This document shows positions 4,066 through 63,164 of a DNA stretch of 64,000 bases, piece after piece; position 1 is the first letter of the stretch; the number at the start of each line of letters is the position of its first letter. The stretch comes from Octopus sinensis (Eukaryota): the NCBI RefSeq assembly GCF_006345805.1, contig NC_043008.1:78616001-78680000 (forward strand), written 5' to 3'. The notes under the pieces were generated by a model. That model worked only from the letters and a program-made list of their open reading frames with translations, was not told the origin of the DNA and ran no database searches. Position numbers and translations under genes: made by a program.

Positions 4066-4740
4066 TTAATCAATATAGGGTGGCAAAAAAAATTTTGTAG
4101 AATTTTTTTGCCACCAGCGGCCTAGTGGGAAAAAATTAAATAGTCATATACCATTTTTAAGTTCAACATCACAATCAAGGAACGGCCATAATAGGCCATT
4201 CACCCACTAGAAATAACAGCCAAACGCTTCAACCGCAAAATAACATCAATTCCGTAAACCAGGAGAAAATTAAAAAACATTTACCCTGTAATTTCTTATA
4301 CGATGCACCGTTTCATCTACTGTTTAATGGTAAACTAACCTGATTAAATTAAATCAAGCCAATCTACCATAGGCCCTTAGATTCATCAGTAAGAAATAGC
4401 CAAGTCGGAACAGATATTTTTCACGAGGCATTCCCGTCCCTGCCTCGGCAATATCTGACCTAAAATTTTCAAATCATCGCACTCGCGCCAAATTTATCGG
4501 CAGCAAATAAATATAAGCCGCCGATTCCATTACGGAATTAACCAGAAAATTCATAATTAATCAATATAGGGTGGCAAAAAAAATTTTGTAGAATTTTTTT
4601 GCCACCAGCGGCCTAGTGGGAAAAAATTAAATAGTCATATACCATTTTTAAGTTCAACATCACAATCAAGGAACGGCCATAATAGGCCATTCACCCAGTG
4701 GTGGGTGAATGGCCTATTATGGCCGTTCCTTGATTGTGAT
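4066..4740 (-). mobile_element. Retrozyme-like non-coding element: 491-nt unit, partial tandem repeat and terminal fold-back
   Basis: 4066-4206 is repeated at 4557-4697. 4701-4740 is the reverse complement of ~4659-4697. Contains an HHR and is flanked by (TA)n on both sides. Confidence 0.75.
4291..4397 (-). ncRNA. Type I hammerhead ribozyme, intact core
   Basis: Minus strand reads atttctta-CTGATGA-atcta...tagat-GAAACGGTGCATCGTA-taagaaat. 8-bp perfect stem I, long stem II, near-palindromic stem III, GUA site. Confidence 0.85.
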
Positions 4741-5060
4741 ATATATATATATATATATATATAATTCAAATTTATTGAAAAACAAAGATGAAGACAGGTG
4801 TAGGAACAAGAAAGTGTATTAGTTTGATGCTCAGAAAAGATCGAAAAGTCTTTTACATTTCAAGCCTACGCTCTTCGACAGAGGAGAATAAGAGGAAATA
4901 GAGAGAGAATGAAAAGAAAACGTGTTGAGTTCAGAGGTCCAACATGGTAATGTGTGTGTGTGTGTGTGTGTGTGCATATGCATGTGTGTGTATACATATG
5001 CACAGAGAAAAAGAGTGAGAAATGGAAGAAACTATAAATTGTAATCAATTGAATTCAATT

Positions 5061-5234
5061 TTAAATTGCTTCAAGTGATTTATATACGGCATCTAACAAA
5101 GTTTTCCATCTATAATCATCCTGAAGAGAGACAGGATCTAAATGGTTTGTAATATAAGCAACTCCAATATTTTTCTCTTTGTCTCCAAATGCCAGCTGAC
5201 CTCCATATCCTAAATGTCCAAACACATATTTGCC
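5061..5234 (-). CDS. Beta-lactamase-family serine hydrolase (beta-lactamase domain-containing protein), terminal coding exon
   Basis: Acceptor ttttttcattttag, then GKYVFGHLGYGGQLAFGDKEKNIGVAYITNHLDPVSLQDDYRWKTLLDAVYKSLEAI-stop (TAA at 5063-5061). FGHxGxGG is the family's C-terminal motif. Phase 0 matches the exon at 25786-26031. Confidence 0.9.
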   Translation of the reverse strand, partial: GKYVFGHLGYGGQLAFGDKEKNIGVAYITNHLDPVSLQDDYRWKTLLDAVYKSLEAI

Positions 5235-5576
5235 CTAAAATGAAAAAAAGTAGGAATATGTAATTGAAAATCAAAAGCAAGCTTTAAAATATTTAATCAA
5301 CTTTTACTTTGTCATTAATTCAAAATATGTTAGTACTGTATCTCATTAACAAGGTGGCCTTTTGATCACTATTAGTGAAAAAGAAGGTATAGCTGTAATT
5401 TTGTAATGTTGAATACATAAAGCTTAACTCTTGAGGTGTAAGTTCCTCCATGCGTCTCCATTCAAATATCATTTCCCACTTCATTTACTTCATTTTAATC
5501 TCTCTCTCCCTCCTTCCTTCTCCCCTTCTCTCTATGTCTGTATGTATATATGTGTGAGTATATATATATATATATA

Positions 5577-5780
5577 AAGTTAATCCAAACATGAAAACAC
5601 AAAGAGAAAACACAACAACGCGAGGACATGGAACAAATATAGTATTATTGGACACTCAGGAAAGAAGGAAAGGAGGGTTTAACGTTTCGAGCAGAGCTCT
5701 TCGTCAGGAACATAGGAAGAGGAAAGATCCAGAGAAGGGAAGACGGAGGAAAAAAAGTCGCCAACGGTACACATGTGGTC
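5577..5780 (-). mobile_element. Short non-autonomous repeat with a minimal HHR at 5677-5711
   Basis: Minus strand reads gttc-CTGACGA-agagc-tct-gctc-GAAACGTT-aaac. Decayed relatives at ~4760-4950 (-), ~18455-18660 (-) and ~35900-36050 (+). Confidence 0.7.
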
Positions 5781-5784
5781 AGGA

Positions 5785-8700: not shown

Positions 8701-8787
8701 TTACACCTTTCTTCTCACTCTAATTTGAAACAACATATTGGTTCTTGATTACCAATTTCCAAAGCTGCACTTTTTGTTCCACCTTAA
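5785..8787 (-). mobile_element. Decayed hAT-superfamily (hATm-like) DNA transposon
   Basis: Fragmented ORFs: QKASIPCI, SDRAAA..VIDRSKVRRE, YFDGR, SCDGAAVNTG..LHWFVCQLHANELPL, HSRWFTTAN.LRLY, CHTQAVER. End reads ttaaggtgg on the minus strand; many stops and frameshifts. Confidence 0.7.
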
Positions 8788-8885
8788 TATTTATATATTT
8801 GATTTTTGATTTTTTGATTTTTCCAGTTTCAGCTAATGAGCTGTGGCCATGCTGGGGCACCGCCATATATATATATATATATATA

Positions 8886-9028
8886 CTGTTGTGTCTGGGG
8901 AAAGTCATTTTCTTTTTGTGCCGTATAATTTAACACACTCACCGGTAAAATAAGAAATAAGTGGAAATTTTACCGGTGTGTTAAATTATAAGGCACAAAA
9001 AGAAAATTACTCTCCCCAGATACAACAG
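8886..9028. repeat. Short fold-back repeat with ~60-bp inverted arms
   Basis: ctgttgtgtctgggga...accggtaaaat pairs with atttaccggt...ccccagatacaacag. A non-inverted relative lies at ~15061-15185. Confidence 0.75.
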
Positions 9029-9217
9029 AATATGCTTCGACGCACAAACTCACATAAAGAATCTTGCAAACCAAATCCCAAAACAATATATATATTAATA
9101 AAAGGAATTCCAGCCTTGTCTGATTTTCACATTTTATTTACAATCTTATAATGATATAATATAGGATAATATAATATAATAAAATAAAATAATAGAATGT
9201 TAAATGTTCATTCTGAT

Positions 9218-9262
9218 TGAACTAGTACTTTCATGCATTAAATTATGCAATCTTCAGGTTCA
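9218..9262 (-). ncRNA. Minimal type I HHR in PLE-1 3' pLTR
   Basis: tgaac-CTGAAGA-ttgcat-aattta-atgcat-GAAAGTACTA-gttca. Palindromic stem III AGTACT. Confidence 0.85.
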
Positions 9263-11685
9263 TGTAGTAGTGGTGACAGTCATGCTTCACAATTTTTGAC
9301 TGTAGCAAGATGGTTAAATCTGTGCCTTAAATACACCTGTGTAGGCTCCAGATTGCTAAGTTTTGCAAACTGTATTCTGACCAATCAGTGTGTAGCATCA
9401 CTCAATTACTTAAGCTGATTGGTTTAGGCATCACACTTTGTTGAACATGTCAAGAGTCCTGTATCTTAACCCTGGCTGAGGCAGCAATTGTTGGGCTATT
9501 TTTAGAAATGTTGTGAATAGCCTTTGTCAGGGATTTTTATATTTCAATTGTCATCATCATCATTGTCAGCACCTTAATTATTGTTGCTAGTGGTGATGGT
9601 GGTGGCAATAGAACTTTTAACCCTAAATAAGATAATTTTCCTGCTATCTTCATCTTGATCACCTTTAGTATTGTTGTTGTTGTTAGTGGTCATGGTCGTA
9701 GCAGTAGAAGTAGTACCTCTAAGTATTATTATTATTGCTTATTTAGCTTGGGTTCGAATTTATCAATAAAATTCTTTTCTCTGATTTTCCTCTCGATTTC
9801 ACTTGGGCTGTGTAATTTGTAGAATGGAAATATTATATATATTTTCCAATCACATGTTGCTAGGTGGTTACTCAAAGGTATCTGACGGACCTCTGGGTTT
9901 CTAATCTGTTGTCGGTGTACACGTGAGCGTTCTGATAGTGCATTTCCTGTCTGACCTACATATATTTCTTCACAATTTGGGCATTTGATGCAGTAAATTA
10001 AATTTCTGCTTTTGCAGTTCATATTCGCGTTTGTGAATATTTTCCCGGTTTTTGTGTTTATATATTGGCCGGTATGTATGAATTGGCATGTGCCACTCGG
10101 CTATCATTGCATTTAGATACAGTGAATGTTTGGTCTTTGTTGCTAAGGTCAAATTTTGCCTTTGTTAGTAATTTTTTCAAGTTTTTACGCTGTCTTTTAC
10201 TAAGAATCATAGCTCGATCCGTGATTATATCTTTTAATTCATTACTTTGAGCAATGATTGGTAGGTTTGCTTTGGCAATGTTGAAGATATTCTGGTGACA
10301 TGAGTTGTGTGTCACTATGAATGGTATGACTTGTTCTTATTTTCCTCTTCCTTGGGTTGTCCTAAGTTGTTGTATGGGTATTTTTATAGCCCGCTGTATG
10401 CCATTTTCTATAAGTAGAGATGGGTATTTTTGTTTGAGCAAAAGTTCTGTTAGGTGTTTGTTCCTGATATTTGCATCTTCTACAATGGTACAAATTCTTC
10501 TGGCTAGGCAGTATGGGATGTTGCGTTTTGTATGTGATGGATGGCATGACTTAAAATTCAGGTATTGATGTGTGTCTGTGTGTTTATAGTATATATCTGT
10601 GGTGATGGTGGTGTCCTTTTTAATTACCATTATATCTAGGAATGGTAATTTGGTACTACTCATCTCCTTTGTAAATTGGAGAGATGGGTATAGGTTGTTC
10701 AGGAGGATATTGAACTCTTCCAGAGTATTTAGAGATTCTGTCCAGATTATGAAGCAGTCGTCAAGGTTCTAAATCCAGTGCTATAGTTTACCTTCACCTC
10801 TTGGTAGAGTTGTTGTTCTAAGTATCCCATTAGAGTTGGCGTAAATGGGAGCAAACCTCGTTCCCATCACTGTGCCTCTAATTTGGATGTAATTCTTTCC
10901 ATTGAAGAAGAATGTGTTGTTTTCTTGAATAAGTTTGACTGTGTCTAATATAAATGGCACTGTGAATCTGCTGGGAATCACTTCTCTATGTTTTTCTAAC
11001 CAGTATTTAGTCGCCTTTATTCCTAAATTGTGTGGAATATTGGTGTAGAGGCTTACCACATCAAAACTTAGTAAAACTGAATTTGTTTCTGTTGTTTTGG
11101 GAAGATGGGACAGGAAGTCGATGTCATCCCTGATGAAACTGGGTATGTAAGTACATAGTGGTTTCAAAACAATGTCAATAAAATTGCTTAGGGCATGCTG
11201 GACCAGTTATAATAGGTCTAAGTTTTAGGTCTTTTGGATGTAGTAATTTTATGTACTCACTTTCTTGTTCTTTTACTGCATGTTGAATATCTTTTGATTT
11301 ATGTATTTTCGGTAAGCCATAGAAATTGCTGGGTTTTGGTTCGAAATTGGTGATGTAGTCTCTTTCATTATCGGTAAGTGAGTTGTAGTGTTTTGAAATC
11401 AGGTTGTTGATCTTTTTCATGATGTGGCTATTCACAACATTTCTAAAAATAGCCCAACAATTGCTGCCTCAGCCAGGGTTAAGATACAGGACTCTTGACA
11501 TGTTCAACAAAGCGTGATGCCTAAACCAATCAGCTTAAGTAATTGAGTGATGCTACACACTGATTGGTCAGAATACAGTTTGCAAAACCTAGCAATCTGG
11601 AGCCTACACAGGTGTATTTAAGGCACAGATTTAACCATCTTGCTACAGTCAAAAATTGTGAAGCATGACTGTCACCACAACTACA

Positions 11686-11730
11686 TGAACCTGAAGATTG
11701 CATAATTTAATGCATGAAAGTACTAGTTCA
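11686..11730 (+). ncRNA. Minimal type I HHR in the inverted PLE-1 pLTR
   Basis: Reverse-complement copy of 9218-9262. Confidence 0.85.
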
Positions 11731-12510
11731 ATCAGAATGAACATTTAACATTCTATTATTTTATTTTATTATATTATATTATCCTATATTATATCATTAT
11801 AAGATTGTAAATAAAATGTGAAAATCAGACAAGGCTGGAATCCCTTTTATTAATATATTCTTCTATACACAATCACACACACCCGTATATATATATATCT
11901 ATATATATATATACATATATATATATATACATGACTCTATTATTTTTCTATTCTTTCATTCCTTCCTTCTTTCTAACAGGTCTTTCACACTTACTTCGTT
12001 TATTCCACTCTTCATTTTTTCGTTCCCCCTCTCTCACATTTCCTGGCCTTCTCTTTATGCTCACTTTCCCTCCTCTTTCACTTCACTCTGTCCCTTTCAT
12101 TTTTTTCTTGCCCCTCCTTAATTCTTCTATCCCTCTACCTCTACCTCTCTCTCATTTCTCCCCACGTGACCAGTGTTTGGCCAAGCCTGATCTTTCTTTC
12201 TTGGTTTGACTACCATCCGTGCGACATCTATATTCCTCCCTGTGTCAAACCCTATGTCCCTGCCATCTCTCTCTCTCTCTCTCTCTCTTTCTCAATATAT
12301 ATATATATATATATATATGCGTATATGGGTACAGGATGTCACCAACTGCAAACAACACGAAGTACGAAAACAAATTAGTGAAATATGCAAACAAAGAGAG
12401 AAAAAATGGAAAACAGGACAAGTAACACGAAGAATGACCCTTCATCAGTTGGCGGCTATCTATCTACTCCACATATATATGTATGTATCTGTGTATGTGT
12501 ATATATATAC

Positions 12511-12598
<88 letters not shown>

Positions 12599-12609
12599 CT
12601 ATCTTTCTA

Positions 12610-13489: not shown

Positions 13490-14100
13490 AGTTAAAGTCT
13501 GGTCATAGAGTGACCAATGGTTTTGTATGGTTTCGTATCCAGGAAAGCTACAGCCTTGAGGACAGCTCATCAGACACTATACAAAAACAATTTTGACTTT
13601 TCACCTCGCAGAAGCAGAGAAACACTAGGACAATAATATAAAACGGCTAACAGAGAAAAAAGTTAATGAGGATGGGTTATCTCCCCTGGACCAGAGGTTA
13701 AATGGAAGCTAGTATTTATTTCATTAAACAGCAAACGGAAAGACCCAATGGTGTTTGTTCTGGGGTCGATGACATTAGAGCTAGTAATTGTGCTATTGTC
13801 ATTGCCTCCAGCGCCATTATTGTACATTGTTGATAATGTTGTTGCCAAGTCATAGTGTCACCATAGCCTTATAAATGACTCTTTCGGCCGTGCATCAGCC
13901 CCCTACTGGACAGTTATTGTACACCCTGCAAGAGCAACCTGCCTCTTCTCTTGGTTTGCAAGTGTTATTTAAAATACTTTTTATATTGGGTGCACAATTC
14001 AAGGAGACCCTTAGGTTGCACCTGTTGAATAAATGTCTGTATCTGTGTCTGTGTGTGAAATGTTTGTGGATTAATCTGTGAAATATCCTTCCCACACAAG
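13490..14100 (-). mobile_element. Decayed PLE 3' fragment (GIY-YIG region) with HHR at 13505-13580
   Basis: HRYRHLFNRCNLRVS..CSCRVYNNCPVGG resembles PLE-2. Downstream the minus strand reads atagtgt-CTGATGA-gctgtcc...ggatac-GAAACCA...TGGTC-actctat. Confidence 0.7.
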
Positions 14101-14236
14101 TCTTGACGCTGAATGAGAAGGGTGGGGCAAACCAAACGACATTTCAGCGGCACCTCCTTTTCTGGATGCTAGGGCCTGGCATGTACAAGATACTGTCCTT
14201 AAACACACTAGAGCTGAAATGTGTAAAAGACTAAAA

Positions 14237-20399: not shown

Positions 20400-21385
20400 A
20401 AACAAATCAAAAAGAAATTTAACAATTAAAGCATCAAAAAATCTGAATAAACCAATAATGAATAACCAAATAAAAGAATAAACAATATAAAATTGAAATA
20501 AGGGACAGTCATTGAGAACAGGGGTTGTCTGAAAGGAGTTTGAGTATGTAGAGTGAAATTGTAACGCTGTCCCAGGTGGAGCCTAGAGTAAAGGCCAAAG
20601 ACGGTCATATGTGAGATGGAGTAGGTGACCAACCAAAAATGATGGTCGACGTGTGCGTTCGTACGTAGATGAACATCTCGAAGATGTTCGGTGAACTGGT
20701 CAGCTAGCTGGCAGCCCATCTGACCAACATAAAGTTTGTTGCAGTGATTACAACCGATGCAGTAAATAACGCTGGAAGAAGTGCAGAAGAAGGAATTCCT
20801 AATGTAGAGGGTGTTCTGGTTGGGTCCAGTGAGAGAGGTGGTGTTAGTGATGAAGAGACAGGTGTGGCAACGGGATCTGAAGCAAAGAAAGAATCCAGGT
20901 GGGGCTAGAATGGAGGGGTAGCTATGGACCAGTAGATTGCATAGGTTATGGGTGCGTTTGAAGGAGGGCAAGGGTAGGTTGGGAAAAATAGGGAGGGTGG
21001 TGGGATTTAGTTGGAGGCGATGGAAGGCTCACAGGATCCTCTGACAAAGGGTTAGGGTGGAGGGATGGAAAAGAAGAGGAAAGGGGTGGCGTTTAGGGGA
21101 CTGGTGTGGGGAAGGATTTGACGAGCACGAGTAAAGCAATTTGGACAAGGGTTGATGAGTATCCATGATGCATGAACAAGCAGGCCAGGTACTGGGACTG
21201 GGTCTTGAAATCCTGGTTCTGACTGCACAGGCATTGGAGGCGGGGGAACTGGGAACAGGGGATGTCCCGTTTGGCGTGGGAGGGATGGGAGGAGGAAAAG
21301 TTGAGGTAGAGGTAAAAGTTTGCGGGTTTGAAGAAGGCAGAGGTGGTGAGAGAGTGGGAGAGGGATTCAATGGAGAGAGGACTTT
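20400..21385 (-). mobile_element. Decayed Penelope-like element (RT C-terminus + GIY-YIG)
   Basis: SSSHPSHAKRDIP in a shifted frame; CFRSRCHTC, FFCTSSSVIYCIGCNHCNKLYVGQMGCQLADQFTEHL. Confidence 0.75.
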
Positions 21386-21472
21386 TGAAATTTTTATATT
21401 TATTTACAATTTTTACATCAGTGTTTAAAGTTCAATTCCTTCTAAAAATTTGAAATGCTTTTATAACTAAGA

Positions 21473-22206: not shown

Positions 22207-22280
22207 ATAAAAAAATAACACGGTAAAAGTTTTTATTTTTCATTCCTTCGAAATTGCTCTTAAATGTGGTTTTGGTCGTG

Positions 22281-22315
<35 letters not shown>

Positions 22316-22635
22316 CGACCAAAACCACATTTAAGAGCAATTTCGAAGGGAATGAAAAATAAAAACTTTTACCTATATATATATACATAAATATGTAGAT
22401 ATATATATTTATGTATATATATATATGTATATACATATGTACATATATACAAAAGTTCTATAATTATTAGCATAATTATAATTAGGGTACAGCAAAATTT
22501 GCTTCACCACATACCAAAATTTAGAAATAGCAGTTAAAATACTATTCTACTACCATAAGATATCTCCCAGACAGGAATACTCAACAACTCATGCAGGTAA
22601 AGAGAAAAAATAACGATTCCACCTGGCTCTGATTA

Positions 22636-26425: not shown

Positions 26426-26459
<34 letters not shown>

Positions 26460-26461
<2 letters not shown>

Positions 26462-27080
26462 TGGATATAGAATGTCACCAACAGTAAACAACATGAAGCA
26501 CATAAACAAGCGATTTAAATATGCAAGCAATGAGAAAAAATGGAAAACAGGACAAGTAACACAAAGAACGACCCTTCATCAGTTGGCGGTTGTCTATCTA
26601 CTCCTCATTTTGAGCATTCAATGACAATATGAGTTATCGAAGACAGTTGCTCCCATAACTTCCAAAATGAAATTTTAGATTTTACAGCAGACCAAACTTG
26701 GGAACAAAAACAGGACAGTGGAGACATACAAGGAAACCGAACAAAAACAAACATGCAGGGTCGTTAGACCTGAATGAGGGTAAAATAGTGAACGCTGAGA
26801 GAAATATTTTTTTTGGAAAGAGAAAAGATAGAAGAAAGAGATATAAAACGTCCTGTCTTTCGTACGTCTGTGCAGGAAAAGAAAGATGGATGCTGGTCAT
26901 GTGTGAGCAACAAGAGAGAGGAAAAGAGAAAGAGGGGAGGGGGAGAGAGACAGCTAGAAAATGGTGATGGAGGGAGGGGAGAAAAAGGGAATTAGAGAAG
27001 GATGGGTAAGAAAACAGTACAGAGTAGAGTTGCATCAAAAAGGTTAAGATAAACTAATTTGGAAATGGATGCCTGGTGTT
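26460..27080 (-). mobile_element. Unclassified non-autonomous repeat (relatives at ~12320-12470 and ~28800-29360)
   Basis: Shared aaaaatggaaaacaggacaagtaacac..gacccttcatcagttggc..tctatctactcc block; the copy at ~28900-29360 is inverted relative to this one. Confidence 0.6.
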
Positions 27081-27091
27081 CACTTGAATAA

Positions 27092-27144
<53 letters not shown>

Positions 27145-27146
<2 letters not shown>

Positions 27147-28743
27147 ATAAAACGGTAAGATAACAAAAGAAAGAAAGAGACCTCAATATTATGTAAATAG
27201 AGGAAATTTATCTATACAATATGTTACATTACTCGGTAGTCAAGATAAAACTCTGAGTTTCAGATGCCGAAGTGGAAATCCACAACACCATCTCTTCGGT
27301 TATCTGGCTATTTGAAAACGTTATGAAAAAATACCGTTAAAAATGAAGGGAAATTACTCTGTTATAACTCTGCTTTGCCTGTGTACTTATACATCGCTCG
27401 CATTTTTCGTCATAAAAATTATATAAAAATACATAAAAAAAAATACATAAAAAAAAAATAAAAATATATAAAAATATATAAAATCTTCTTGGGACATTAC
27501 ACAGAAAGCATGTTCTATCCGTTTTCTTTAGGGGACCAAAAACGTAACAGAAATTTAGTCACATGTGGGCATGATCCGAAAAGCTCTGTCCTTGTATTTA
27601 GACATGTGGTAGGGTCTAAGCTGCTTTTCCAGATAAGCCATCTCTCCATGTCGCATAAACCGCACCTTCCGCTGCCGTTGGTATAGGGCTTACATCTGGC
27701 CAAAATCTTCCATTGTATGTTATAATCGACACCTTTATCTCTTAAAGACCAAATATGATTAGATAATTGTGTCGCTTTTCTTTTGTTCCAGTGCCTAAAG
27801 CTCAAAGTGTGGTTATTGAACCTGGCCTTGAAATTACCCTCTGTCAGGCCCACGTATTTCTTCGTCGAAACGGTGTCTTTAGTGGTTATAGAGTTTACGG
27901 TAGCTTCATATATGATGGTCTTGGACATGCAAGCTCCATTTAGCGGGCACAATTCTTTATTCCTGCATGAACAGCTGTTTTCTTCTTGTGTTTTTTGTAT
28001 GTTATGATTGATTATGTTTTTAAAATTGGTAGTTGAACTAAAACTAATTTTTAAATTGTGTCTATTAAAGAGTTTCCTATAAGCATGGTTAACTGGAAAA
28101 TGTCTATCTATCAGTGCTAGGAAATATTTACCTATATTGAAGGCCACCTCGGGTGAGTAAGGGCGGCGTAAACCAAAGAAAAGCGACACAATTATCCAAT
28201 CATATTTGGTCTTTAAGAGATAAAGGTGTCGATTATAACATACAATGGAAGATTTTGGCCAGATGTAAGCCCTATACCAACGGCAGCGGAAGGTGCGGTT
28301 TATGCGACATGGAGAGATGGCTTATCTGGAAAAGCAGCTTAGACCCTACCACATGTCTAAATACAAGGACAGAGCTTTTCGGATCATGCCCACATGTGAC
28401 TAAATTTCTGTTACGTTTTTGGTCCCCTAAAGAAAACGGATAGAACATGCTTTCTGTGTAATGTCCCAAGAAGATTTTATATATTTTTATATATTTTTAT
28501 ATATTTTTATGTATTTTTTTTTAATGTATTTTTATATAATTTTTATGACGAAAAATGCGAGCGATGTATAAGTACACAGGCAAAGCAGAGTTATAACAGA
28601 GTAATTTCCCTTCATTTTTAACGGTATTTTTTCATAACGTTTTCAAATAGCCAGATAACCAAAGAGATGGTGTTGTGGATTTCCACTTCGGCATCTGAAA
28701 CTCAGAGTTTTATCTTGACTACCGAGTAATGTAACATATTGTT

Positions 28744-28745
<2 letters not shown>
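27145..28745 (-). mobile_element. Penelope-like element 2 (GIY-YIG end), 5'-truncated, with ~570-bp inverted 3' end
   Basis: ORF 27515-28189: NIGKYF..LFNRHNLKISFS..CPLNGAC..IIYEATV..YVGLTEGNFKARFNNH..CGLCDME. ~28175-28745 is the reverse complement of ~27211-27785. HHR variants at 27243-27305 (-) and 28653-28715 (+). Confidence 0.92.
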
Positions 28746-28783
<38 letters not shown>

Positions 28784-29420
28784 AATATATATATACATGT
28801 ATATATGGGTACAAGACGTCACCAACTATACTGCTTTCTCCTCCATCCTTTTTCCCCCTTCACCGTTTTGTATCTGTCTCTCTCTTTCTCTCTTTCTCTT
28901 TTTCTCTCTCTCTCGTTGCTCACACATGACCATCATCCATCTTTCTTTTCTACATGTGACTATCTTTTCCTGCACAGACATTCTAAGGACTGGATGTCTT
29001 CTATCTTTTCTCTTTTCAAAGAAAACATTTCTCTCAGCGTTCACTATTTCTCCTTGTTCTGGTCTAATGACCCTTCATGTTTATTTTCGTTCGGTTTCTT
29101 TGTATGTCTCCATTGTCCTGTTTTTGTACCCAACTTTCATCCTCCATAAAATCCAAACTTTTATTTTGGCATTTATGGGAGCAACTGTCTTCAAAAACTT
29201 ATATTGTCATTGAATGCTCGAAATGAGGAGTAGATAGACAGCTGCCAACTGATGAAGGGTCGTTCTTTGTGTTACTTGTCCTGTTTTCCTTTTTTTTCTC
29301 ATTGTTTGCATATTTAATTAATTTGTTTTCATACTTGCAGTTGGTAACGTCCTGTACCAATATATATTTATTATTTATATTATTATTTAATTGAATGCTA
29401 CACATTTCCAAGTAAGTATA

Positions 29421-29916: not shown

Positions 29917-30415
29917 GGCATTAGGAAGGGCATCCAGCTGTAGAAACACTACCAAATCAGATTGGGGCCTGATGCAGCCTCCTGGCTTCCTAAACCCCAG
30001 TCGAGCTATCCAACCCATGCCAGCATGGAAAATGGATATTAAACGATGATAATGATGATGATGATGATGATGATACATATATATATATAAATATATCAGC
30101 ATCATCATCGTTGTTTAATATCCACTTTCTATGCTGGCATGGGTTGGACGGTTTGACTGAGGACTGGCGAGCTAGATGGCAGCACCAGGCTCCAATCTGA
30201 TCTGGCAGAGTTTCTACACCTGGATGCCCTTCATAAAGCCAACCACTCCAAGAGTGTACGGGTGCTTTCATGTACCACTGACATGAGGGCCAGTCAGACG
30301 GTTTTGGCAATGGCCATGTTCAAATGGTGTTTTTTATCTGCCACCTGCACATGGGCCAGTCCAGCAGCACTTGGCAATGACCTCGCGCAAATGTTGTTTT
30401 CCACGTGCCAGTAAG
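29917..30415. mobile_element. Two RTE 3'-end fragments, tail to tail
   Basis: ggcattaggaagggcatccagctgtagaaac...aaacgatgat(gat)n on plus and its reverse on minus; the same tail as the LINE at 61190-61330. Confidence 0.75.
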
Positions 30416-34272: not shown

Positions 34273-34280
34273 AACCAGTG

Positions 34281-35743: not shown

Positions 35744-36069
35744 TACACACACACACACCCTCTCTTGCTGGGATCACTAGCACTACTATTATCGCTCTTT
35801 CATTCAATCTGTTTGTTTATTATCATCTCCCTTTCTTTCAACCTCTTTTTTTCCAATCTTTCTCCATGTTTGACTGCTGAACTCCACACATTTTTTTTTC
35901 CATTCTCTCTGATTATCTTCTCTTATTCCTTTCTGTTGAAGAGTGTAGGCTCAAAATGTAAAAGACTATTTCATTTTTCCTAAACTTCAAACTAATACAT
36001 TTACTTTTGTTCATACACCCATTTTCGACTTTTGTTTTTCTATAAATTTCAACTATATATATATATATA

Positions 36070-37130
36070 TATTGGGTCATCCTATAAATAATGCGTTTTT
36101 TTTTACTTCTTTTATTATTCAAAATTAAAGTTCTTTTTTAATCTAAAATATACTTTCCTTCATTTTCTACAATGCTCTTGCAACTATCTCATAGACATGC
36201 AAGGCAGGCCCCTCTTCCAAAATTCACTTGTCCATGGTGAAAAATACTCCCCCAGTACTGGTCTACAGAATTCATATTTTTTCCGTCCAAATGATTTTGA
36301 AGACTGTGGAATAAATGATAATCAGATGGACCAATGTCCGCCGAATATGTTGGGTGGGGTATCGTTTCCCATACAAACTGCTCCAGCCTTTGGAATGTCA
36401 TCCTCGCTGTATATAGCCGAGTATTATCCCAATGGAAGAACAACTTTCATCTTGAAACCAAAGATGGCCGTTTTTCTTCTAGCGCTGACTTAAGTCGATG
36501 AAGCTGCTCATTGTTATCATTTGGCTTGGGTTTAAAAATTTTAAGTGGACTAAACCTTTCATATCCCACCAAACAGATAACAACACCTTATGTGGGTGAA
36601 GACCTTCTTTAGCCTGGGGCACCAGTGTTTCTACCCACTGTCTTTGACACTTGACATTTTTATAGAGAACCTATTTCTCATCACCAATCACTCTTCAGTC
36701 CAAAAAAGGTTCATTCATGAGGCATGACAGCAAAGAAGAGCACACATTCACTCTCTGCACGTGATTGGACTTGGAAAGTTTGTGAGGCATTGCACATGCA
36801 TCCATGTGCTGCTATCTGTTGGCATGCTACAGAACTAGTCCAGGAACTTTTTGAAATATATAGAATTAAAGGAAAGACTTTAAATGGATCAGTATGAATA
36901 GAAATAGAGTGAAAGTAGTGATGCTGATTAAGAGTATCAGCAATAAAGCTGAGAAACAACTGAGTATAAACATACTTATACACAACCAGACGACTTTAAC
37001 ATATGTAATATAGTAAAGTGAAAACCTTTGATTAAATGAGATTACCCATGTAATTAGAAAATAGAATTTCCTTTTGGAGGCATTGTGAATCTAAAAACAG
37101 TAACAAGAAAATAAACAACCAGCTAATAAG
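36070..37130 (-). mobile_element. Decayed mariner (DD34D) transposon
   Basis: FLD*RVIGDEK*VLY, FFHWDNTRLYTA, PHPTYSADIGPSDYHLF (YSPDLAPSD-like). Confidence 0.8.
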
Positions 37131-52237: not shown

Positions 52238-52285
<48 letters not shown>

Positions 52286-52583
52286 AAAATAGTAAAGAGT
52301 GAAAAAATGACAGAAGGCTTAAATGTTAAAAAATATATATATTTGCGTCAAAATGTCTGGAGAATATTGGAAAAATTTTTTTCCCCTCCTTAAAATGACA
52401 TAATTTTATAATTTTTAAAGAAATACCGGTTTCGCAGTTAGCTCTTCAAATTTCTTGTGACTTAATGTTTATTTTTAATAACGTAATCCTTGTATTTTTG
52501 CTACGGAGAGTTCTAAATAAGGGAAAGTAGTGAGTGATTTCTTCTGGTGTAAGGGAGATAATCGCTTAAAAACATTTTTTCCT

Positions 52584-53748
52584 TTAGTGTGAATTTCTCT
52601 GTATTATTGAGTTCGGATAGTTGAGTCTGGGTTTGTACTTTTCAATGAAGAATGTTTCCTTATTTAGTCTAATTTGTGATGATGATCCGAAAGCACATTG
52701 GTAAAATGGAAAGATTAAAAATTGTGGTTGTAGTTGCTTTGCGCATTTCTCAATGTGTTCACTAAAAGGTATCATTCTATATTCTGGGAATGCAATCTGT
52801 TGTCGATGCAGTGTGCATCTACGTCTGAGTGATAGTCCCGTGGACCCCACGTAGTCTTGGTGGCAGCCCGAGCATTTAATGACATAAATTATGTTTTCAG
52901 AGGCACAAGTAAAGTTAGATTTGATCTTGAATTTCTGTCCCTCTTTAAAGAAGAATTCTGATCCTTCCAATAGGTTAGGACATGTTGCACAGTTCGATCT
53001 ACCACATTTTTTTACTTTTGCATCCGTAATTTTAGAAGACAATTTTGCCTTTGTGAGAATCTTTTTAAGTGATTTAGGCTGTTTGTAGCTTTTAATGATT
53101 TGGTGTATGTTTAGAATTTCCTTTAATTTGGGGTTTTTATGAAGTATTGGTAAATTCTGGGTGATGATGGTGAAAGCTTCTTTGTTTCTGGGGTTGTATG
53201 TAGATATGTAAGGTAGTATTTTCGGGGAAGGTGTGTTGTTGTGTTGAACTTTTCTTAAAGTTTCTATGTTGATTTCTGTTGCACGTCTGATCCCATCCTC
53301 TATGAGTTGAGTTGGGTAATGTCTGTCAATTAAGGTGTTTTTGAGTTCTTGCAGTCTGAAGTTCCTGGTGTTTTGTTCTGACACTATTGTGCATATCCTT
53401 CTTGCAAGGTTGAAGGGGATGTTTGTTTTAGTGTGTCTTGGGTGGCATGAACTAAAAAGAAGGTATTGTTTGGCGTCTGTGGCTTTGTAGAAAATGTCTG
53501 TTTCTATTTTAAGGTTAATTTTTTTAATTAGTATATCCAAGAACGGGAGTTCCTTTTGGTTGTATTCCATTGTGAACTGTATATTTGGGTTTATGCTGTT
53601 CAATAGGTTTTTAAATTTTAAGAGTTTATCTGTGTTTTCATTCCAGAGAATAAAACAATCGTCCAAGAATCGTTTCCAGTTCTCTTTTATGTATTGAGAG
53701 AGGGGGTTTCCAAAGATTGATAAGGATTCCTGGTAAATGGTTATTTCC
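52584..53748 (-). CDS. PLE RT C-terminus + GIY-YIG endonuclease, uninterrupted but 5'-truncated (left arm)
   Basis: WKRFLDDCF, LPFLDILI, YLLFSSCHP, CGRSNCATC, IIYVIKCSGCHQDYVGST, EHIEKC. The N-terminal MIRIP is read from the opposite arm. Confidence 0.85.
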
Positions 53749-53750
53749 AT

Positions 53751-54897
53751 AGGAATCCTTATCAATCTTTGGAAACCCCCTCTCTCAATACATAAAAGAG
53801 AACTGGAAACGATTCTTGGACGATTGTTTTATTCTCTGGAATGAAAACACAGATAAACTCTTAAAATTTAAAAACCTATTGAACAGCATAAACCCAAATA
53901 TACAGTTCACAATGGAATACAACCAAAAGGAACTCCCGTTCTTGGATATACTAATTAAAAAAATTAACCTTAAAATAGAAACAGACATTTTCTACAAAGC
54001 CACAGACGCCAAACAATACCTTCTTTTTAGTTCATGCCACCCAAGACACACTAAAACAAACATCCCCTTCAACTTGCAAGAAGGATATGCACAATAGTGT
54101 CAGAACAAAACACCAGGAACTTCAGACTGCAAGAACTCAAAAACACCTTAATTGACAGACATTACCCAACTCAACTCATAGAGGATGGGATCAGACGTGC
54201 AACAGAAATCAACATAGAAACTTTAAGAAAAGTTCAACACAACAACACACCTTCCCCGAAAATACTACCTTACATATCTACATACAACCCCAGAAACAAA
54301 GAAGCTTTCACCATCATCACCCAGAATTTACCAATACTTCATAAAAACCCCAAATTAAAGGAAATTCTAAACATACACCAAATCATTAAAAGCTACAAAC
54401 AGCCTAAATCACTTAAAAAGATTCTCACAAAGGCAAAATTGTCTTCTAAAATTACGGATGCAAAAGTAAAAAAATGTGGTAGATCGAACTGTGCAACATG
54501 TCCTAACCTATTGGAAGGATCAGAATTCTTCTTTAAAGAGGGACAGAAATTCAAGATCAAATCTAACTTTACTTGTGCCTCTGAAAACATAATTTATGTC
54601 ATTAAATGCTCGGGCTGCCACCAAGACTACGTGGGGTCCACGGGACTATCACTCAGACGTAGATGCACACTGCATCAACAACAGATTGCATTCCCAGAAT
54701 ATAGAATGATACCTTTTAGTGAACACATTGAGAAATGCGCAAAGCAACTACAACCACAATTTTTAATCTTTCCATTTTACCAATGTGCTTTCGGATCATC
54801 ATCACAAATTAGACTAAATAAGGAAACATTCTTCATTGAAAAGTACAAACCCAGACTCAACTATCCGAACTCAATAATACAGAGAATTCACACTAAA
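53751..54897 (+). pseudogene. Mirror copy of the PLE-3 ORF with two 1-nt deletions
   Basis: Same peptide split into ORFs 53816-54097 and 54097-55005; frameshifts near 54073 and 54885. Confidence 0.8.
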
Positions 54898-55023
54898 GGA
54901 AAAAATGTTTTTAAGCGATTATCTCCCTTACACCAGAAGAAATCACTCACTACTTTCCCTTATTTAGAACTCTCCGTAGCAAAAATACAAGGATTACGTT
55001 ATTAAAAATAAACATTAAGTCAC

Positions 55024-55062
55024 AAGAAATTTGAAGAGCTAACTGCGAAACCGGTATTTCTT
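55024..55062 (+). ncRNA. Variant minimal HHR in the PLE-3 3' UTR (mirror at 52418-52456, minus)
   Basis: aagaaat-TTGAAGA-gc-taact-gc-GAAACCGGTA-tttctt; C3U core, palindromic ACCGGT. Confidence 0.55.
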
Positions 55063-55295
55063 TAAAAATTATAAAATTATGTCATTTTAAGGAGGGGAAA
55101 AAAATTTTTCCAATATTCTCCAGACATTTTGACGCAAATATATATATTTTTTAACATTTAAGCCTTCTGTCGTTTTTTCACTCTTTACTATTTTCTTATA
55201 TATTCACCCACGTGCTTTACCAAACAAACTTTCTTATCTATATATATATATATATATATACAGTGGTAAGATTGTAAATATATATGTATATACTA

Positions 55296-58265: not shown

Positions 58266-58308
<43 letters not shown>

Positions 58309-58679
58309 TGTGTATATGTATATATAAATGTATGTGTATTTTTTGTGTAGAAATAACACGGAAGAAAGAAATAAATAGTTACCAGTGTAGCAAAAATTCA
58401 CATAAGTGCCAAGGATGTTACAGCCTACTTATAAAGGCAGAAATTCCAGGGTTTAGTGAAATGTTTTTAAATAACATAGATATTAAGAAATGGAGTTAAA
58501 CACAGGAGTTATTCACATCTTTATACTTCCGACAAATGTTTTGAAGAAAACATTGGTATTATTCCTGAAGGAATAAAATGATGTAAAACAATGTAATCAT
58601 CTTATCAGGGGTAAAAGAGAAACAAAACACATCAATAAACCATTTTAACCGAATGTGATTATTGTATATATGATGGTTC

Positions 58680-60754
58680 TTACCACCAAGGTTACGTGGT
58701 GGTGGAACAGTGTTGTAGACAGGGCTATTAGAGAAAAGAGACAGACTTGGAAACACTGGAAGAATGGTGGTAGCAGGGAATTGTATCAGACTGCTAAAAG
58801 GGAAGCTAGGAGACAGGTGTATTTAGCCAGAGGGGAAGCAGATAAGAAAAAATTTGCCAATGTTCTGCGCCATGAGGACCAAAGACTGGTGTTTCGCGTT
58901 GCAAGACAGTGTGTGAGAGAGAATTGTGATGTGGTAGGAGAGAAGTGTGCTCGCATGGAAGATGGTTCCCTTGCGCTAAATGAGGATGCAAAGAGAGAGG
59001 TTTGGAGACGCCACTATGAAAGGTTGCTGAATAAAGAAAATGAATGGGATAAAGAGAGTCTGCCGAATGTCAACCCAACAGAGGGACCAGCTATCAGAGT
59101 TGATAGTTCCTTGGTAGTTAAGGCAATTAGAAGCATGAAGACAGGGAAAGCCCCAGGCCCATCAAGTATCACTGCAGAGATGTTCAAAATATCTGGTAGT
59201 GTCGGCTATAGCCTAGTCACCCGTATAGTTAATCAGGTGATACACAAAGAAGTCATACCCAATGACTGGTGTAGCAGCATAATAGTCAACTGCTACAAAG
59301 GTAAAGGTGACGCCCTAGATACAAATAATTACAGAGGTATCAAGCTGTTGGATCAGGTGATGAAGGTTACAGAGAGGATCATAGCCCAACTAATTAGAGA
59401 GAGAGTTAGTTTAGATGAGATGCAGTTTGGGTTCGTGCCAGGGAAAAGTACCACTGATGCTATATTCCTGGTAAGGCAGCTGCAGGAGAAATACCTAGCC
59501 AAAGATAAGCTCCTGTACCTGGCTTTTGTTGACATGGAGAAAGCCTTCGACAGGGTCCCCCAATCCCTCATCTGGTGGTCAATGAGGAAACTAGGGATAG
59601 ATGAATGGTTAGTGAGAGCTGTGCGAGCCATGTACAGGGACGCTGCTAGTAAGGTGAGGGTTGGAAACGAGTACAGTGAAGAATTCTGGGTAGAGGTTGG
59701 GGTCCACCAAGGCTCAGTCCTCAGCCCCCTCCTATTTATCATAGTCCTCCAGGCAATAACAGAGGAATTCAAGACAGGATGCCCCTGGGAGCTCCTCTAT
59801 GCTGATGACCTTGCTCTAATTGCTGAGTCACTATCAGAACTGGAGGAGAAGTTTCAGGTGTGGAAGCAAGGTTTAGAATCGAAGGGCCTTAGAGTCAATC
59901 TAGCTAAAACCAAAGTCGTAATAAGTAGGAAGGTAGACAAATCACAAACGCCTTCAGGTAGATGGCTCTGCTCAATCTGTAGAAAAGGTGTAGGTAGAAA
60001 CTCTATAAGATGCACCAAGTGTAAGCTATGGACACATAAGAGGTGCAGCAATGTCAAAGGAAGGCTAACTAGGAAGATGGTTTTTGTATGTGGCAAATGC
60101 TCGGGAGCATTAACCTCTGAAAATCTGCAGAAAACAACTTCCGTCACTTTCCAGGGGGAAAAACTAGAAGTAGTTGATAGCTTCCGTTATCTTGGTGACC
60201 AAGTCAGTTGTTGGGGTGGGTGTGCTGAAAGTGTAACTGCTAGAGTAAGAATAGCCTGGGCAAAGTTTAGGGAGCTCTTACCTCTGCTGGTGACTAAAGG
60301 CCTCTCGCTCAGAGTAAAAGGCAGACTGTATGATGCATGTGTACGAACAGCCATGCTACATGGCAGTGAAACATGGGCCGTGACTGCTGAGGACATGCGT
60401 AAGCTCACGAGAAATGAAGCCAGTATGCTCCGATGGATGTGTAATGTCAGTGTGCATGCTCGACAGAGCGTTAGTACCCTGAGAGAAATGTTGGACCTAA
60501 AGAGCATCAGTTGTGGTGTGCAAGAGAGACGATTGCGCTGGTATGGTCATGTGGCGAGAATGGATGAAGATAGGTGTGTGAAAAAGTGCCAATCCCTAGC
60601 AGTGGAGGGAACCCGTGGAAGAGGTAGACCCAGGAAAACTTGGGACGAGGTGGTGAAGCACGACCATCGAACTTTAGGTCTCACTGAGGAAATGACCAGC
60701 GACCGAGACCTTTGGAAATATGCTGTGCGTGAAAAGACCAGGCAGGACAAGTAA
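58680..60754 (+). CDS. RTE reverse transcriptase (partial) with internal PHD-like C4HC3 finger
   Basis: NYRGIKLL, MQFGFVPGKST, FVDMEKAFDRV, GVHQGSVLSPLLF, LYADD, CSIC..CTKC..HKRC..CGKC, FRYLG, RRLRWYGHV, RGRPRKTW. The listed start at 58655 lies in the flanking PLE arm. Confidence 0.9.
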
Positions 60755-61330
60755 GTCCAGCCCACTTATGCATGCCTTTCCTCCCTTGGACACACAAAGA
60801 CCTGTTGAGGCAAGCAAAGTCAATATCGAACCTCATCCGACGACAGGTCTTGCTTGTGAAGACCTGTTGGGGCAAGTGAAATCGGAATCGAAATTGAACC
60901 AATCCTATGACTGGCACCCGGCAGATGCCAGGACCCCTGGACTGGAGATATGTAAAAAGCACTATCCGAATCGTGGCCGATGCCAGCACCGCCTTGACTG
61001 GCTTCCATGTCGGTGGCACGTAAAAACCATCATCCGCATCGTGGCCGAAGCCAGTGCCGCCTCGACTGGCTTCCGTGCAGGTGGCACGTAAAATGCACCA
61101 ATCCGACCGTGGCCAATGCCAGCCTCGCCTGGCACCAGTGCAGGTGGCATGTAAAAAGCACCCACTACACTCACGGAGTGGTTGGCGTTAGGAAGGGCAT
61201 CCAGCTGTAGAAACATTGCCAGATAAGACCGGAGCCTGGTGCAGCCTTCTGGCTTCCCAGATCCCCGGTCGAACCGTCCACCCATGCTAGTATGGAGATC
61301 AGACATTAAATGATGATGATGATGATGATG
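58680..61330 (+). mobile_element. Young 5'-truncated RTE-clade LINE
   Basis: Uninterrupted RT ORF, 3' UTR with ~68-nt tandem units (~60952-61160), (GAT)n tail; no APE domain retained. Confidence 0.92.
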
Positions 61331-61613
61331 GAAATGAAATGTAAGAAGACAGATAAGAGTTGAATTTTATAGGTTGGTAGAAACTATTTATAGGTACTAA
61401 ATGTATGCTTTTGCCAATGTTTGTAACAATAAACGATAAATTATCAACAATTAATTATCAGTTCACACCGAATTAGAATATAGTTTTCAAGCACCAAAAA
61501 CCTTTCATAAATCATCTCATCACATAACAATAAGTTGTTAAATACAAATCCACTTAATGAAATTAATAACATTGATATTAACATTAACCATTCTTTGAAC
61601 AATAATAACAATA

Positions 61614-62037
61614 CAGTTCTATATTTAAAAGATCAGGAATTATGTACATTATTTACATTATTTATAGTTGACGGATATTTCTCTTCATCTTGTTTGTTGT
61701 TAACACAATGTTTCAGCTGATATACCCTCCAGCCTTCATCAGGTGTTTTGGGAAAATTTTGAACCTGGGTTCTCATTCCTATGGTATTTTTTGATGTTAT
61801 TGTTATTATTATTATTATATTATTATTATTATTAAGGTCACTGCCTAGAATTGAACTCAGAATCTTGGGGTTAGTAGCCCGTACTCTTAACCACTACACC
61901 ATATGCCCAAGAGAGCCCAAGTTCAAAATTTCCCCAAGACACCTGATGAAGGCTGGAAGATATATCAGCTGAAACGTTGTGTTAACAACAAACAAGATGA
62001 GGACAAATATCCATCAAAAATAAATAATGTAAATAAT
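61614..62037 (-). mobile_element. tRNA-headed SINE with HHR tail and inverted 3'-end copy
   Basis: tRNA-like head 61908-61836 (TGGTGTAGTGG A box, GAGTTCAATTC B box), (TAA)n, HHR at 61746-61703. 61911-62037 is the reverse complement of 61648-61774. Confidence 0.75.
61939..61982 (+). ncRNA. Minimal type I HHR
   Basis: acac-CTGATGA-aggctg...cagct-GAAACGTT-gtgt; palindromic AACGTT stem III. Confidence 0.8.
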
Positions 62038-63164
62038 AACGATATTAGTATTTCTGATATAAATTTCAATCACATTCATTTCCTTAGCAGTAGTTCTAAG
62101 ACTAGAAACTCTATTTATCAATGTAAAATTACTTCCCGTTCTGATGTCTTTTTTTTACATAGGTAAAACATCTCAGTTGTCCAAAACAATATCTAACCAT
62201 TACTCTACATTTAGACATATCAATAAATGCAGCAATACTGGGCTTAGTAAATTAATTTGGTCTCTTAAGGAACATAATAAACAACTTGATTTGGAATGGA
62301 ATATTCTATCTAGATCCTTTCTGTATGATAAAGGTAAATCTTTTTGTCCGCTCTGTAACGAAGAACAGTATCTCATTTTGTTCTCAGAGAATTCTCTTGT
62401 AAACATGTTTAAAGAACATGTTTATTATTGCAAACATTGACAAAAACATACCTTTAGTTCCTATAAGTAATTTCTATCAAGCTATAAAATTTGACTTTTA
62501 TCTGTCTTCTTACATTTTATTTCCACTACATATATCTATTTACATGCTTTATTTCCACTCATCTTTATTTCCACTCATCTATCGCATTATATTTATCCAC
62601 TCTTAATTTTCCATTAATTTCTTTCTTTCTCCTCTTTTTCTTTCTCCAAATTGCCTTTGACATTAAATCTATTAACAGTTTTTTAAGAAATAACTGGCCA
62701 ATGTTCCCTTCATCATATACGCGGTAATCACATTCGGTTAAAATGGTTTATTGATGTGTTTTGTTTCTCTTTTTTCCCTGATCAGATGATTACATTGTTT
62801 TACATCATTTTATTCCCTCAGGAATAATACCAAGGTTTTCTTCGAAACATGTGTGGGAAGAATAAAAATTTGAATAGCACCTATGTTTAACTCCATTTTT
62901 AGATTTGTGTGTGTGTGTGGTGTCCCAGCATGGCCACAGCCTTAGCACTAAAATGCTTAAAAGACTATTGATCTGGGTAGTGTGCATAATATAATCGTTC
63001 TGGTTAGTATGTATGTATATATATATATGATACACATTATGTACAAGACATCACCAACAAGTGAAAAATACGTAAACACACACACATATACACATGCACA
63101 CATATATGTAGATAGACATACACATTTAGGGAACTATGGTTAACAATCAATTTCTCTAACACCT

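Follow-up and report, generated by a model that had tools for sequence, protein, structure and literature searches.

Two-armed insertions of Penelope-like elements and their candidate passengers in Octopus sinensis carry paired fixed ends

We analysed a window of 64,000 nucleotides, positions 78616001-78680000 of contig NC_043008.1 in the 2.72-Gb genome of Octopus sinensis; "the window" means this whole stretch. It is rich in repeats, with remnants of Penelope-like elements (PLEs), RTE fragments, several short interspersed elements (SINEs), hairpin elements and (TA)n. Six of its elements, namely four PLEs (PLE-1 to PLE-4), a hammerhead-bearing tandem unit of 491 nt and a tRNA-headed SINE, have two head-to-head arms. 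At 73 of the 74 loci where both arms reach a family end, the two stop at different points, a proximal site A for one arm and a distal site B for its partner. We consider it probable that these two-armed insertions are made by a Penelope-type reverse transcriptase (RT)/GIY-YIG complex, with both target strands nicked and each nick priming cDNA on the same RNA, and that the same complex likely carries the hammerhead tandem RNA and the tRNA-headed SINE. A wider proposition, plausible but tentative, is that a tRNA-headed SINE of tens of thousands of copies is moved by Penelope-type machinery and not by a long interspersed element (LINE), and that PLE integration is an obligately asymmetric double priming, in which two RT subunits, each working from one of the two target nicks, would start at separate fixed sites of a single RNA (a circle for retrozymes, otherwise linear), the RNA being copied twice and the products joined head-to-head.

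Two-armed elements in the window

An earlier reading made without database searches (the sequence-only reading) had claimed inverted arms for six elements, and all six turned up about where it had placed them. Self-comparison of the window gives the inverted pairs 9090-9522/11426-11858 for PLE-1 (433 nt, 99 %) and 27206-27787/28171-28751 for PLE-2 (98 %). The pairs of the 491-nt unit (4168-4207/4701-4740; 40 nt, 100 %) and of the SINE (61648-61774/61911-62037; 127 nt, 91 %) are shorter, and PLE-3 is a palindrome of 2.9 kb (52277-55203, 99.4 %) with a spacer of 19 nt. PLE-4 comprises 58488-58675/62711-62898 and 61329-61434/62420-62525, an assignment deduced from the end coordinate in the earlier reading, and its arm is interrupted by an RTE. 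The parts of the six elements are:

4066..4697 (-): long arm, 1.3 copies of the 491-nt hammerhead tandem unit, which is non-LTR retrozyme-like; distal site B end, in (TA)n
4291..4397 (-): predicted type I hammerhead of the 491-nt unit; stem I of 8 bp, stem II long, core at 4389 and cleavage predicted near 4298
4701..4740 (+): inverted arm of the 491-nt unit; ends at proximal site A in (TA)n; arm-to-arm gap 3 nt
9090..11425 (-): PLE-1 body, 5'-truncated, RT-GIY-YIG frame broken; tail-less end at site A
9218-9262 and 11686-11730: predicted PLE-1 hammerheads, in body and arm respectively (motif scan)
11426..11888 (+): PLE-1 inverted arm; site B end, with a 30-nt tail (11859-11888) that the body lacks
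27146..28170 (-): PLE-2 body, CxCX5C linker, Hydra-like; site B end, 60-nt tail 27146-27205; very young family
28171..28751 (+): PLE-2 inverted arm; site A end
52277..53750 (-): PLE-3 left arm; site A end; 19 nt (53732-53750) not in the right arm
53751..55239 (+): PLE-3 right arm; site B end; 36-nt tail 55204-55239
58331..58675 (-): PLE-4 inverted arm, outer piece; at least 150 nt beyond the body end; outer boundary not fixed
58676..61328 (+): RTE-type LINE fragment inside the PLE-4 arm; outside the system, served as control
61329..61434 (-): inner part of the PLE-4 inverted arm
61435..62905 (+): decayed PLE-4 body with a remnant of the endonuclease at 62156-62377; 61435-61613 placed by position only
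61614..61909 (-): tRNA-headed hammerhead SINE, full length; site B end
61702-61747 and 61938-61983: predicted SINE hammerheads, in body and arm respectively (motif scan)
61911..62031 (+): SINE inverted arm; site A end
61601..61613 (+) and 62032-62044: left and right copies of a 13-nt target-site duplication (TSD), with one mismatch

The body had been described as 5'-truncated throughout, which does not apply to the SINE, whose 5' end is intact with a complete tRNA-like head. The siting of young elements in (TA)n is likewise correct in part: both arms of the 491-nt unit end in (TA)n, but the SINE lies within PLE-4 between the 13-nt repeats. Nor does such siting serve as a distinguishing mark, as the non-hammerhead SINE at 1763 is also in (TA)n. 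The arm had further been taken for an inversion of downstream or 3' sequence of the element itself, which it often is not: PLE-1, PLE-3 and PLE-4 have a tail on the short arm and none on the long arm.

Paired arms stop at two different fixed sites

Each family has two preferred 3' ends, sites A and B, which lie 30-155 nt apart depending on the family. In query coordinates the ends are at 359 or 387-389 for PLE-1, at 504 or 540-541 for PLE-3, and at 245-278 (A) or 295-296 (B) for the SINE, whose optional tail is 25-50 nt long; they are 60 nt apart in PLE-2 and about 105 nt apart in the 491-nt unit. The A/B interval is the "tail" of published PLEs, and what our counts add is the pairing of the ends. 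One A end was paired with one B end at 33 of the 34 two-arm SINE loci with both arms running into the 3' region, in 16/16 arrays of the 491-nt unit, and at 12/12 PLE-3, 4/4 PLE-1 and 8/8 PLE-2 loci. The same pairing was found at 14/14 SINE loci picked by a head pattern that is blind to the tail, and none of the 35 head-pattern SINE loci has two tailed arms. Not counted were loci with an end beyond the sequence retrieved, repeat entries of a single array, two 491 arrays with an arm that stops elsewhere, and SINE loci where a short snap-back stands in for the second arm.

The longer arm can be A-ended or B-ended, and arms are often not nested. Within the window the short arm of PLE-1 has the 30-nt tail absent from its body, the right arm of PLE-3 has a tail while the left arm has 19 extra 5' nt that continue in other copies, and the PLE-4 arm extends at least 150 nt beyond the body. 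Elsewhere, non-nested arms were found at 11/34 SINE loci (one marginal; 8/14 among the tail-blind loci), at 3/12 PLE-3, 2/4 PLE-1 and 3/8 PLE-2 loci, and in the 491 arrays L178 and L182. The remaining 23 of the 34 SINE loci are nested, as are PLE-2, the 491-nt unit and the SINE of the window. Because the PLE-2 copies L250 and L254 continue past B into the same sequence, site B lies inside tandem RNA. Two distinct fixed ends, with each arm often holding sequence that the other lacks, disagree with the earlier proposal that the arm arises by self-priming of the cDNA and copying to its end. The loci carry the insertion signature of PLEs, that is an inverted 5' copy, an optional tail and a TSD at a unique target, the TSD being readable only for the SINE.

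Evidence that both arms arose in a single insertion

At 24 of the 34 two-arm SINE loci the insertion is flanked by exact direct repeats of 7-16 nt, compared to 2/34 for mismatched-end controls. At 10 SINE loci without two complete arms the direct repeats reach 7 nt at most, and the control SINE_A gave no TSD signal in 43 copies. TSDs are unreadable in (TA)n targets; the sequence-only reading had them absent, and they are present where the target is unique.

The two arms of a locus also share letters that are rare elsewhere. The number observed exceeds that expected from other loci in the 491-nt unit (15 vs 1.0, 14 loci), in PLE-3 (19 vs 5.5, 9 loci) and in PLE-1 (18 vs 4.5, 4 loci). Private variants are present in all covering units of both arms in the 491 arrays L177, L187, L191 and L198, with rare ones in L182. 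Such array-wide private letters are as expected for one circular template, although gene conversion, or a source array that had already been homogenised, would leave the same picture. The single TSD that brackets both arms and the shared private variants uphold the earlier view that the arms belong to one event.

Every junction that we inspected differs. In most of them the arms overlap by 1-12 nt of microhomology, are separated by a small gap filled with a templated insert, or have a further short piece in inverted orientation. The SINE head starts with a 4-bp hairpin whose 2-nt loop is found in both orientations, and exact 32-nt palindromes of this head number 76 genome-wide compared to 0 for the reversed control. 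Many SINE loci consist of an arm, then a snap-back of 18-54 nt, then the full body. Self-priming thus does occur, but as a brief step where the arms meet. The SINE leader itself exists in two mirror forms of the 2-nt hairpin loop (L261-L295 and L012-L027), and this suggests that snap-back products become new SINE source copies. As a guide to which cDNA folds, the loop orientation was uninformative (12 AC, 6 GT and 3 ambiguous among 21 one-tail loci).

Among read-derived contigs, none bridges the 491 junction of the window by 31 nt on both sides. Contigs from three separate runs do span joints between body and arm at other members of the 491 family; the shorter side covers just 26-29 nt, so that the support is weak. 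Some read-derived contigs end at site A against (TA)n.

Head-to-head arms are nearly absent from control repeats

To count arms irrespective of content, we used a blind sample of 1.4 Mb at positions picked without regard to what they hold, and scored an arm where a same-family piece of at least 35 nt lay head-to-head within 100 nt. Arms were found at 5/15 loci of the hammerhead SINE, 5/10 of PLE-2, 1/5 of PLE-1 and 1/1 of the 491-nt unit. None were found for PLE-3 (0/2), PLE-4 (0/2 and 0/3 for two queries with partly shared loci) or the 28831 family (0/2). Among the controls, the tRNA SINE at 1763 had arms at 1/192 loci, the RTE-tail repeat at 0/123 and RTE at 1/40 and 0/4; for the 2603 family, whose orientation is unknown, 0/111 loci were head-to-head (2/111 tail-to-tail). 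In total, 12 of the 53 PLE/hammerhead loci are head-to-head compared to 2 of the 470 loci of RTE and other SINEs (Fisher p=3e-11); the hammerhead SINE against the control SINE gives p=6e-6. Inversions are therefore not equally frequent in non-PLE repeats, yet they are not found in every hammerhead family. The architecture that had been described as common to PLEs, the hammerhead tandem unit and the tRNA-headed SINE is indeed shared by them and nearly absent from RTE and other SINE families.

Two other measures were swamped by neighbouring SINEs and were not used: self-alignment around coding remnants (PLE 7/22, RTE 12/44) and same-family pairs within 3 kb (27 head-head and 25 tail-tail for SINE_A).

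At least two PLE clades are present

Translations of PLE-1 and PLE-3 read as an RT followed by a C-terminal GIY-YIG domain, the arrangement of endonuclease-positive (EN+) PLEs, with a CX4CxxC linker and CCHH motifs. The GIY-YIG profile matches PLE-1 at E=4e-7 and PLE-3 weakly, at 0.004-0.009, with RT motif text upstream; Pfam RVT_1 gave no match to the PLE-1 and PLE-3 fragments. The two are 42-55 % similar. The translation of PLE-2 has the CxCX5C linker by which PMC8557442 defines the Hydra clade, together with the absence of CxxC within GIY-YIG and a (TA)n target. PLE-4, for which Pfam gave no match, is a decayed relative placed with PLE-2 solely by 39 % similarity, and the RT is truncated away in the window copies of both. 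Judged from these motifs, the window holds at least two PLE clades, a CxCX5C Hydra-like one (PLE-2 and PLE-4) and one with CX4CxxC and CCHH (PLE-1 and PLE-3) that is Neptune/Nematis-like.

PLE-2 is almost invariant, with 40 matches at about 100 % across 276 nt (27145-27420 of the window; L241-L260), and has thus probably been active until recently or is active even now. The blind sample has many copies of a non-coding, arm-bearing derivative, 170 nt long, of the PLE-2 3' end. On both sides of PLE-2 in the window (26435-27093 and 28790-29380), and also at 12295-12474, lies an older family with a hammerhead-like core; the right-hand copy (28790-29380) has its own inverted 3' arm of about 40 nt and is a probable seventh two-armed element. 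Genome-wide there are many stop-free GIY-YIG frames of 760-1008 aa, corresponding to several intact-looking PLE families. Further PLE coding remnants of other families, with no evident arms, lie at 20426-21403 (-), 13859-14122 (-) and 31277-31468.

Hammerhead motifs and the 491-nt unit

A motif scan found clean minimal type I hammerheads in PLE-1 and the SINE, and the scan and folding together found variant cores in PLE-2 and PLE-3. The hammerhead of the 491-nt unit folds with a z of -4.8. Because Rfam reported no hammerhead in three scans, the 491-nt unit included, these assignments come from the motif scan and folding, and the type I hammerheads are predicted catalytic motifs. With that reservation, clear or variant motifs are present in the five elements for which they had been claimed, that is PLE-1, the SINE, the 491-nt unit, PLE-2 and PLE-3.

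Copies of the 491-nt unit form dispersed young tandem arrays genome-wide, with units 95-100 % alike. Non-coding tandem repeats, each with a type I hammerhead, are what marks a non-LTR retrozyme by sequence, and on this basis, Rfam being negative, we call the unit non-LTR retrozyme-like. The array-wide private variants give indirect support for a circular RNA. In the window the array is inserted into (TA)n at the end of an old family; 3' ends of that family lie at 4745-4947 and 35864-36072, and its hammerhead-like core is similar to those of PLE loci L313 and L314.

The tRNA-headed SINE and the search for a partner

Scanning whole loci, we found the A-box pattern in 55/65 and the B-box pattern in 48/65. 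At low threshold ARAGORN made a few Ser(ACT)-like calls in SINE loci, while default ARAGORN and Rfam reported no tRNA. A first look gave 36,967 candidates genome-wide, and the A/B-box head together with this high dispersed copy number is that of a tRNA-derived SINE. The 3' end is fixed, without poly(A) or repeat tail, and we did not file the family as a LINE-dependent SINE because no LINE-like end was seen. We infer that the SINE is a Pol III tRNA head fused to a PLE pseudo-long terminal repeat (pLTR), with the hammerhead and sites A and B. In 22/34 copies the 3' part of the SINE can be read without a stop over 51-57 codons, starting at an ATG and reaching the B end (61648-61810 of the window, minus strand); this frame may be the captured start of a PLE open reading frame or may be due to chance. 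The family is also present inside gene models of Octopus sinensis and O. bimaculoides. Octopus tRNA-derived SINEs were described in the 1990s, and the hammerhead family may be one of them.

We looked for a PLE that shares the 3' end of the SINE in 20 regions downstream of GIY-YIG frames, at 60 PLE loci and in the 1.4 Mb, and found none; this sample is small relative to the thousands of PLE candidates. Among the 150 best of the 36,967 SINE candidates there was no frame above 199 aa, and a DNA search and a search with the 51-codon frame returned just SINE copies and two named Octopus gene models containing the SINE. Since no autonomous partner turned up, it is the insertion signature by itself that argues for dependence of the SINE on PLEs. 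Of the earlier claim that one machinery moves PLEs, retrozyme-like RNA and SINE, the shared architecture is upheld; "one" is too strong, given at least two PLE clades, family-specific tail lengths and no autonomous partner found for either passenger.

Priming from two nicks and its alternatives

In the mechanism that we propose, staggered nicks about 9-16 nt apart would provide two 3'-OH ends that prime on a single RNA, the first at A and the second at B. For the 491-nt unit this RNA would probably be a circle, read by rolling-circle RT. The two cDNAs would stop independently and their 3' ends would be joined head-to-head by microhomology-type repair, sometimes preceded by a short self-primed snap-back, and fill-in would create the TSD. 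Such priming fits the activity of a PLE protein in vitro, which cuts and extends both strands and has two internal RNA start sites that bracket the tail (PMC11167929).

Several observations weigh against this mechanism. All the evidence is read from inserted copies, and in vitro the strands did not differ in start site (PMC11167929). Many loci were found with tailed queries, which guarantee one B end though not the A end of its partner. One SINE locus, L005, is B+B; arms end at neither site in the 491 arrays L173 and L184; and 14/35 head-pattern SINE loci lack a tailed arm, many having only a snap-back of 20-25 nt. Direct repeats match the element itself in 2 of the 24 cases, the same-template signal is weak in PLE-2 (12 vs 6.9) and the old SINE (43 vs 29.6), and gene conversion between arms could also give shared variants. 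The old hammerhead-bearing family at 4745-4947 had arms at 0/13 loci of the blind sample, and for neither passenger, the 491-nt unit or the SINE, did our searches find an autonomous PLE partner.

The alternatives partly overlap. A serious one, which we regard as unlikely, is a self-primed hairpin, an extension of the sequence-only reading: the cDNA folds back and is copied to its end, and GIY-YIG trims one arm at A during integration. It explains same-template arms, snap-backs and the 76 head palindromes against none in the control, it draws on the self-priming hypothesised in PMC3846280 and the resolution of the tail by the endonuclease (EN) in PMC8557442, and earlier work described in PMC11167929 has the tail needed for recognition by Penelope EN. 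It requires, however, that the first-made arm be trimmed in about half of the unbiased loci (8/14) and that the stagger be 30-155 nt and vary by family; moreover, the tail maps in vitro between the two RT start sites (PMC11167929), and the spread of SINE A ends over q245-278 in an AT-rich repeat fits primer annealing better than a fixed cut. The pure fold-back of the earlier note, in which the arm is a partial copy of the first cDNA, we consider very improbable except for the short snap-backs. Nested arms, at 23/34 SINE loci and in PLE-2, the 491-nt unit and the SINE of the window, agree with it, as do short inverted pieces ending at neither A nor B (L215, L216, L233, L238, L250), but it cannot give a tail that is absent from the body (PLE-1, PLE-3 and PLE-4 of the window; 11/34 SINE loci) or an identical stop at site A across dozens of loci.

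We also judge it improbable that the arms stem from two RNAs, or from one insertion followed by another at the same place, and were made alike afterwards by gene conversion. PLEs do insert beside one another, a predicted protein dimer could hold two RNAs (PMC11167929), and in PLE-2 and the SINE the two arms of a locus share few letters beyond expectation; yet a single TSD brackets both arms, private variants are common to both arms in very young arrays, and independent events would not be expected to give strict A+B pairing and exclusively head-to-head polarity. About as improbable, and concerning the SINE alone, is transport by a LINE (RTE or other) independently of PLEs, with inversions from the SINE's own hairpin head or from L1-like twin priming. 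The failure to find a PLE with a matching 3' end in the loci sampled speaks for it, as does the small palindrome of the SINE head; against it stand the PLE-type minimal hammerhead, the fixed end without poly(A) or repeat tail, the optional tail of 25-50 nt, arms that are duplicated and not merely inverted, and their frequency of 5/15 compared to 1/192 for a tRNA SINE of similar age and 0/123 for RTE-tail repeats. An assembly artefact from fold-back long reads might be suspected from PLE-3, a near-perfect palindrome, and from the 491 junction of the window, unbridged by read-derived contigs. We give it hardly any credence, as fixed tails set the two arms apart, divergence between arms is 9-25 % in old families, TSDs bracket the arms, one arm is interrupted by a later RTE, and the contigs of three runs hold other 491 body-to-arm joints, the last point being weak given sides of 26-29 nt.

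Other repeats in the window

Two tandem copies (period 446, 99.8 % identical) of the non-hammerhead tRNA SINE, with (TA)n between them, occupy 1721-2650 and represent either a recent duplication or an assembly stutter. An imperfect, MITE-like palindrome of 810 nt (miniature inverted-repeat transposable element; 33466-34275, 85 %) has TTAGGG-like repeats in both arms, and 34746-35744 with 34305-34539 comprises terminal inverted repeats of 250-300 nt around a CA-rich core plus a third copy of the arm. Short hairpin elements lie at 8881-9033, 22222-22373 and 29917-30240, some with (TA)n at the centre; the last consists of two RTE-tail repeats placed tail-to-tail. The inverted pair 23421-23745/24539-24877 (84 %) has no PLE similarity and no further copy in the 1.4 Mb.

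Relation to known systems and significance

In L1 twin priming the RNA serves for a further cDNA that is primed by the second strand of the target, and joining is by microhomology with the TSD kept; the result is an inversion without duplication, at variable sites. At the octopus loci both starts would lie close to the 3' end, at fixed positions, and the RNA would be copied twice. We found neither a PLE-driven tRNA SINE nor twin priming in PLEs in the literature searched, with subscription journals mostly outside it and Repbase and Dfam not covered.

For PLEs the architecture of inverted pLTR, tail and TSD is already published, as is self-priming as a hypothesis: PMC3846280 describes the inverted pLTR, the tail, TSDs of 8-10 bp, trans-mobilisation and self-priming. 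The EN+ PLEs of PMC8557442, PMC3846280 and PMC2377424 resemble the octopus elements in 5' truncation, an adjacent inverted 5'-truncated copy, an optional tail at one end, a hammerhead in the pLTR, (TA)n targeting, trans-mobilisation by pLTRs and, in single described cases, a TSD of 8-10 bp. The octopus loci differ in the strict one-tail rule, in that either arm can be longer and both come from the same template, counted over many loci, and in tails of 60-155 nt that are longer than the 30-40 nt described; the accessible text of those papers proposes self-priming or EN resolution, not two primings. Poseidon of Anolis carolinensis (PAc; PMC11167929) is alike in that both strands are cut and extended, with two RT starts around the tail, AT-rich targets and a predicted dimer. 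In the accessible part of that study the two starts are not linked to the inverted arm and the strands did not differ in start site, and the octopus adds the genomic exclusivity of A+B. Non-LTR retrozymes (PMC7761336, bioRxiv 10.64898/2026.07.22.740005) share the non-coding tandem units with a type I hammerhead and are proposed PLE passengers copied from circles; the octopus unit is 491 nt compared to the 150-300 nt quoted for animals, and its head-to-head arrays with A/B ends give structural evidence of an integration route, while PMC7761336 states that no motif indicated the partner. The SINE-like hammerhead repeats of schistosomes (PMC6765202) also combine a Pol III promoter and a hammerhead in a short retroposon, but they are described as tandem, and the accessible text has no PLE-type tail or inverted arm; the octopus SINE is a dispersed monomer with the tRNA head first.

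Two things are added here: the A+B rule, together with arms that are non-nested and of the same template, and a tRNA SINE that bears the PLE signature. PMC8557442 describes the origin of the inverted arms and tails of PLEs as undefined, and the single in vitro system (PMC11167929) does not reach as far as that question. With the pairing of one A and one B end, the non-nested and same-template arms and the TSDs, it becomes open to a direct test with a protein that is active in vitro. Two-armed loci resemble MITEs or assembly fold-backs and are probably misannotated. By the A/B arm signature, non-coding passengers can be attributed to PLEs even where the two have no sequence homology; the signature lends structural support to PLE-mobilised retrozymes and points to a class of SINE that is independent of LINEs.

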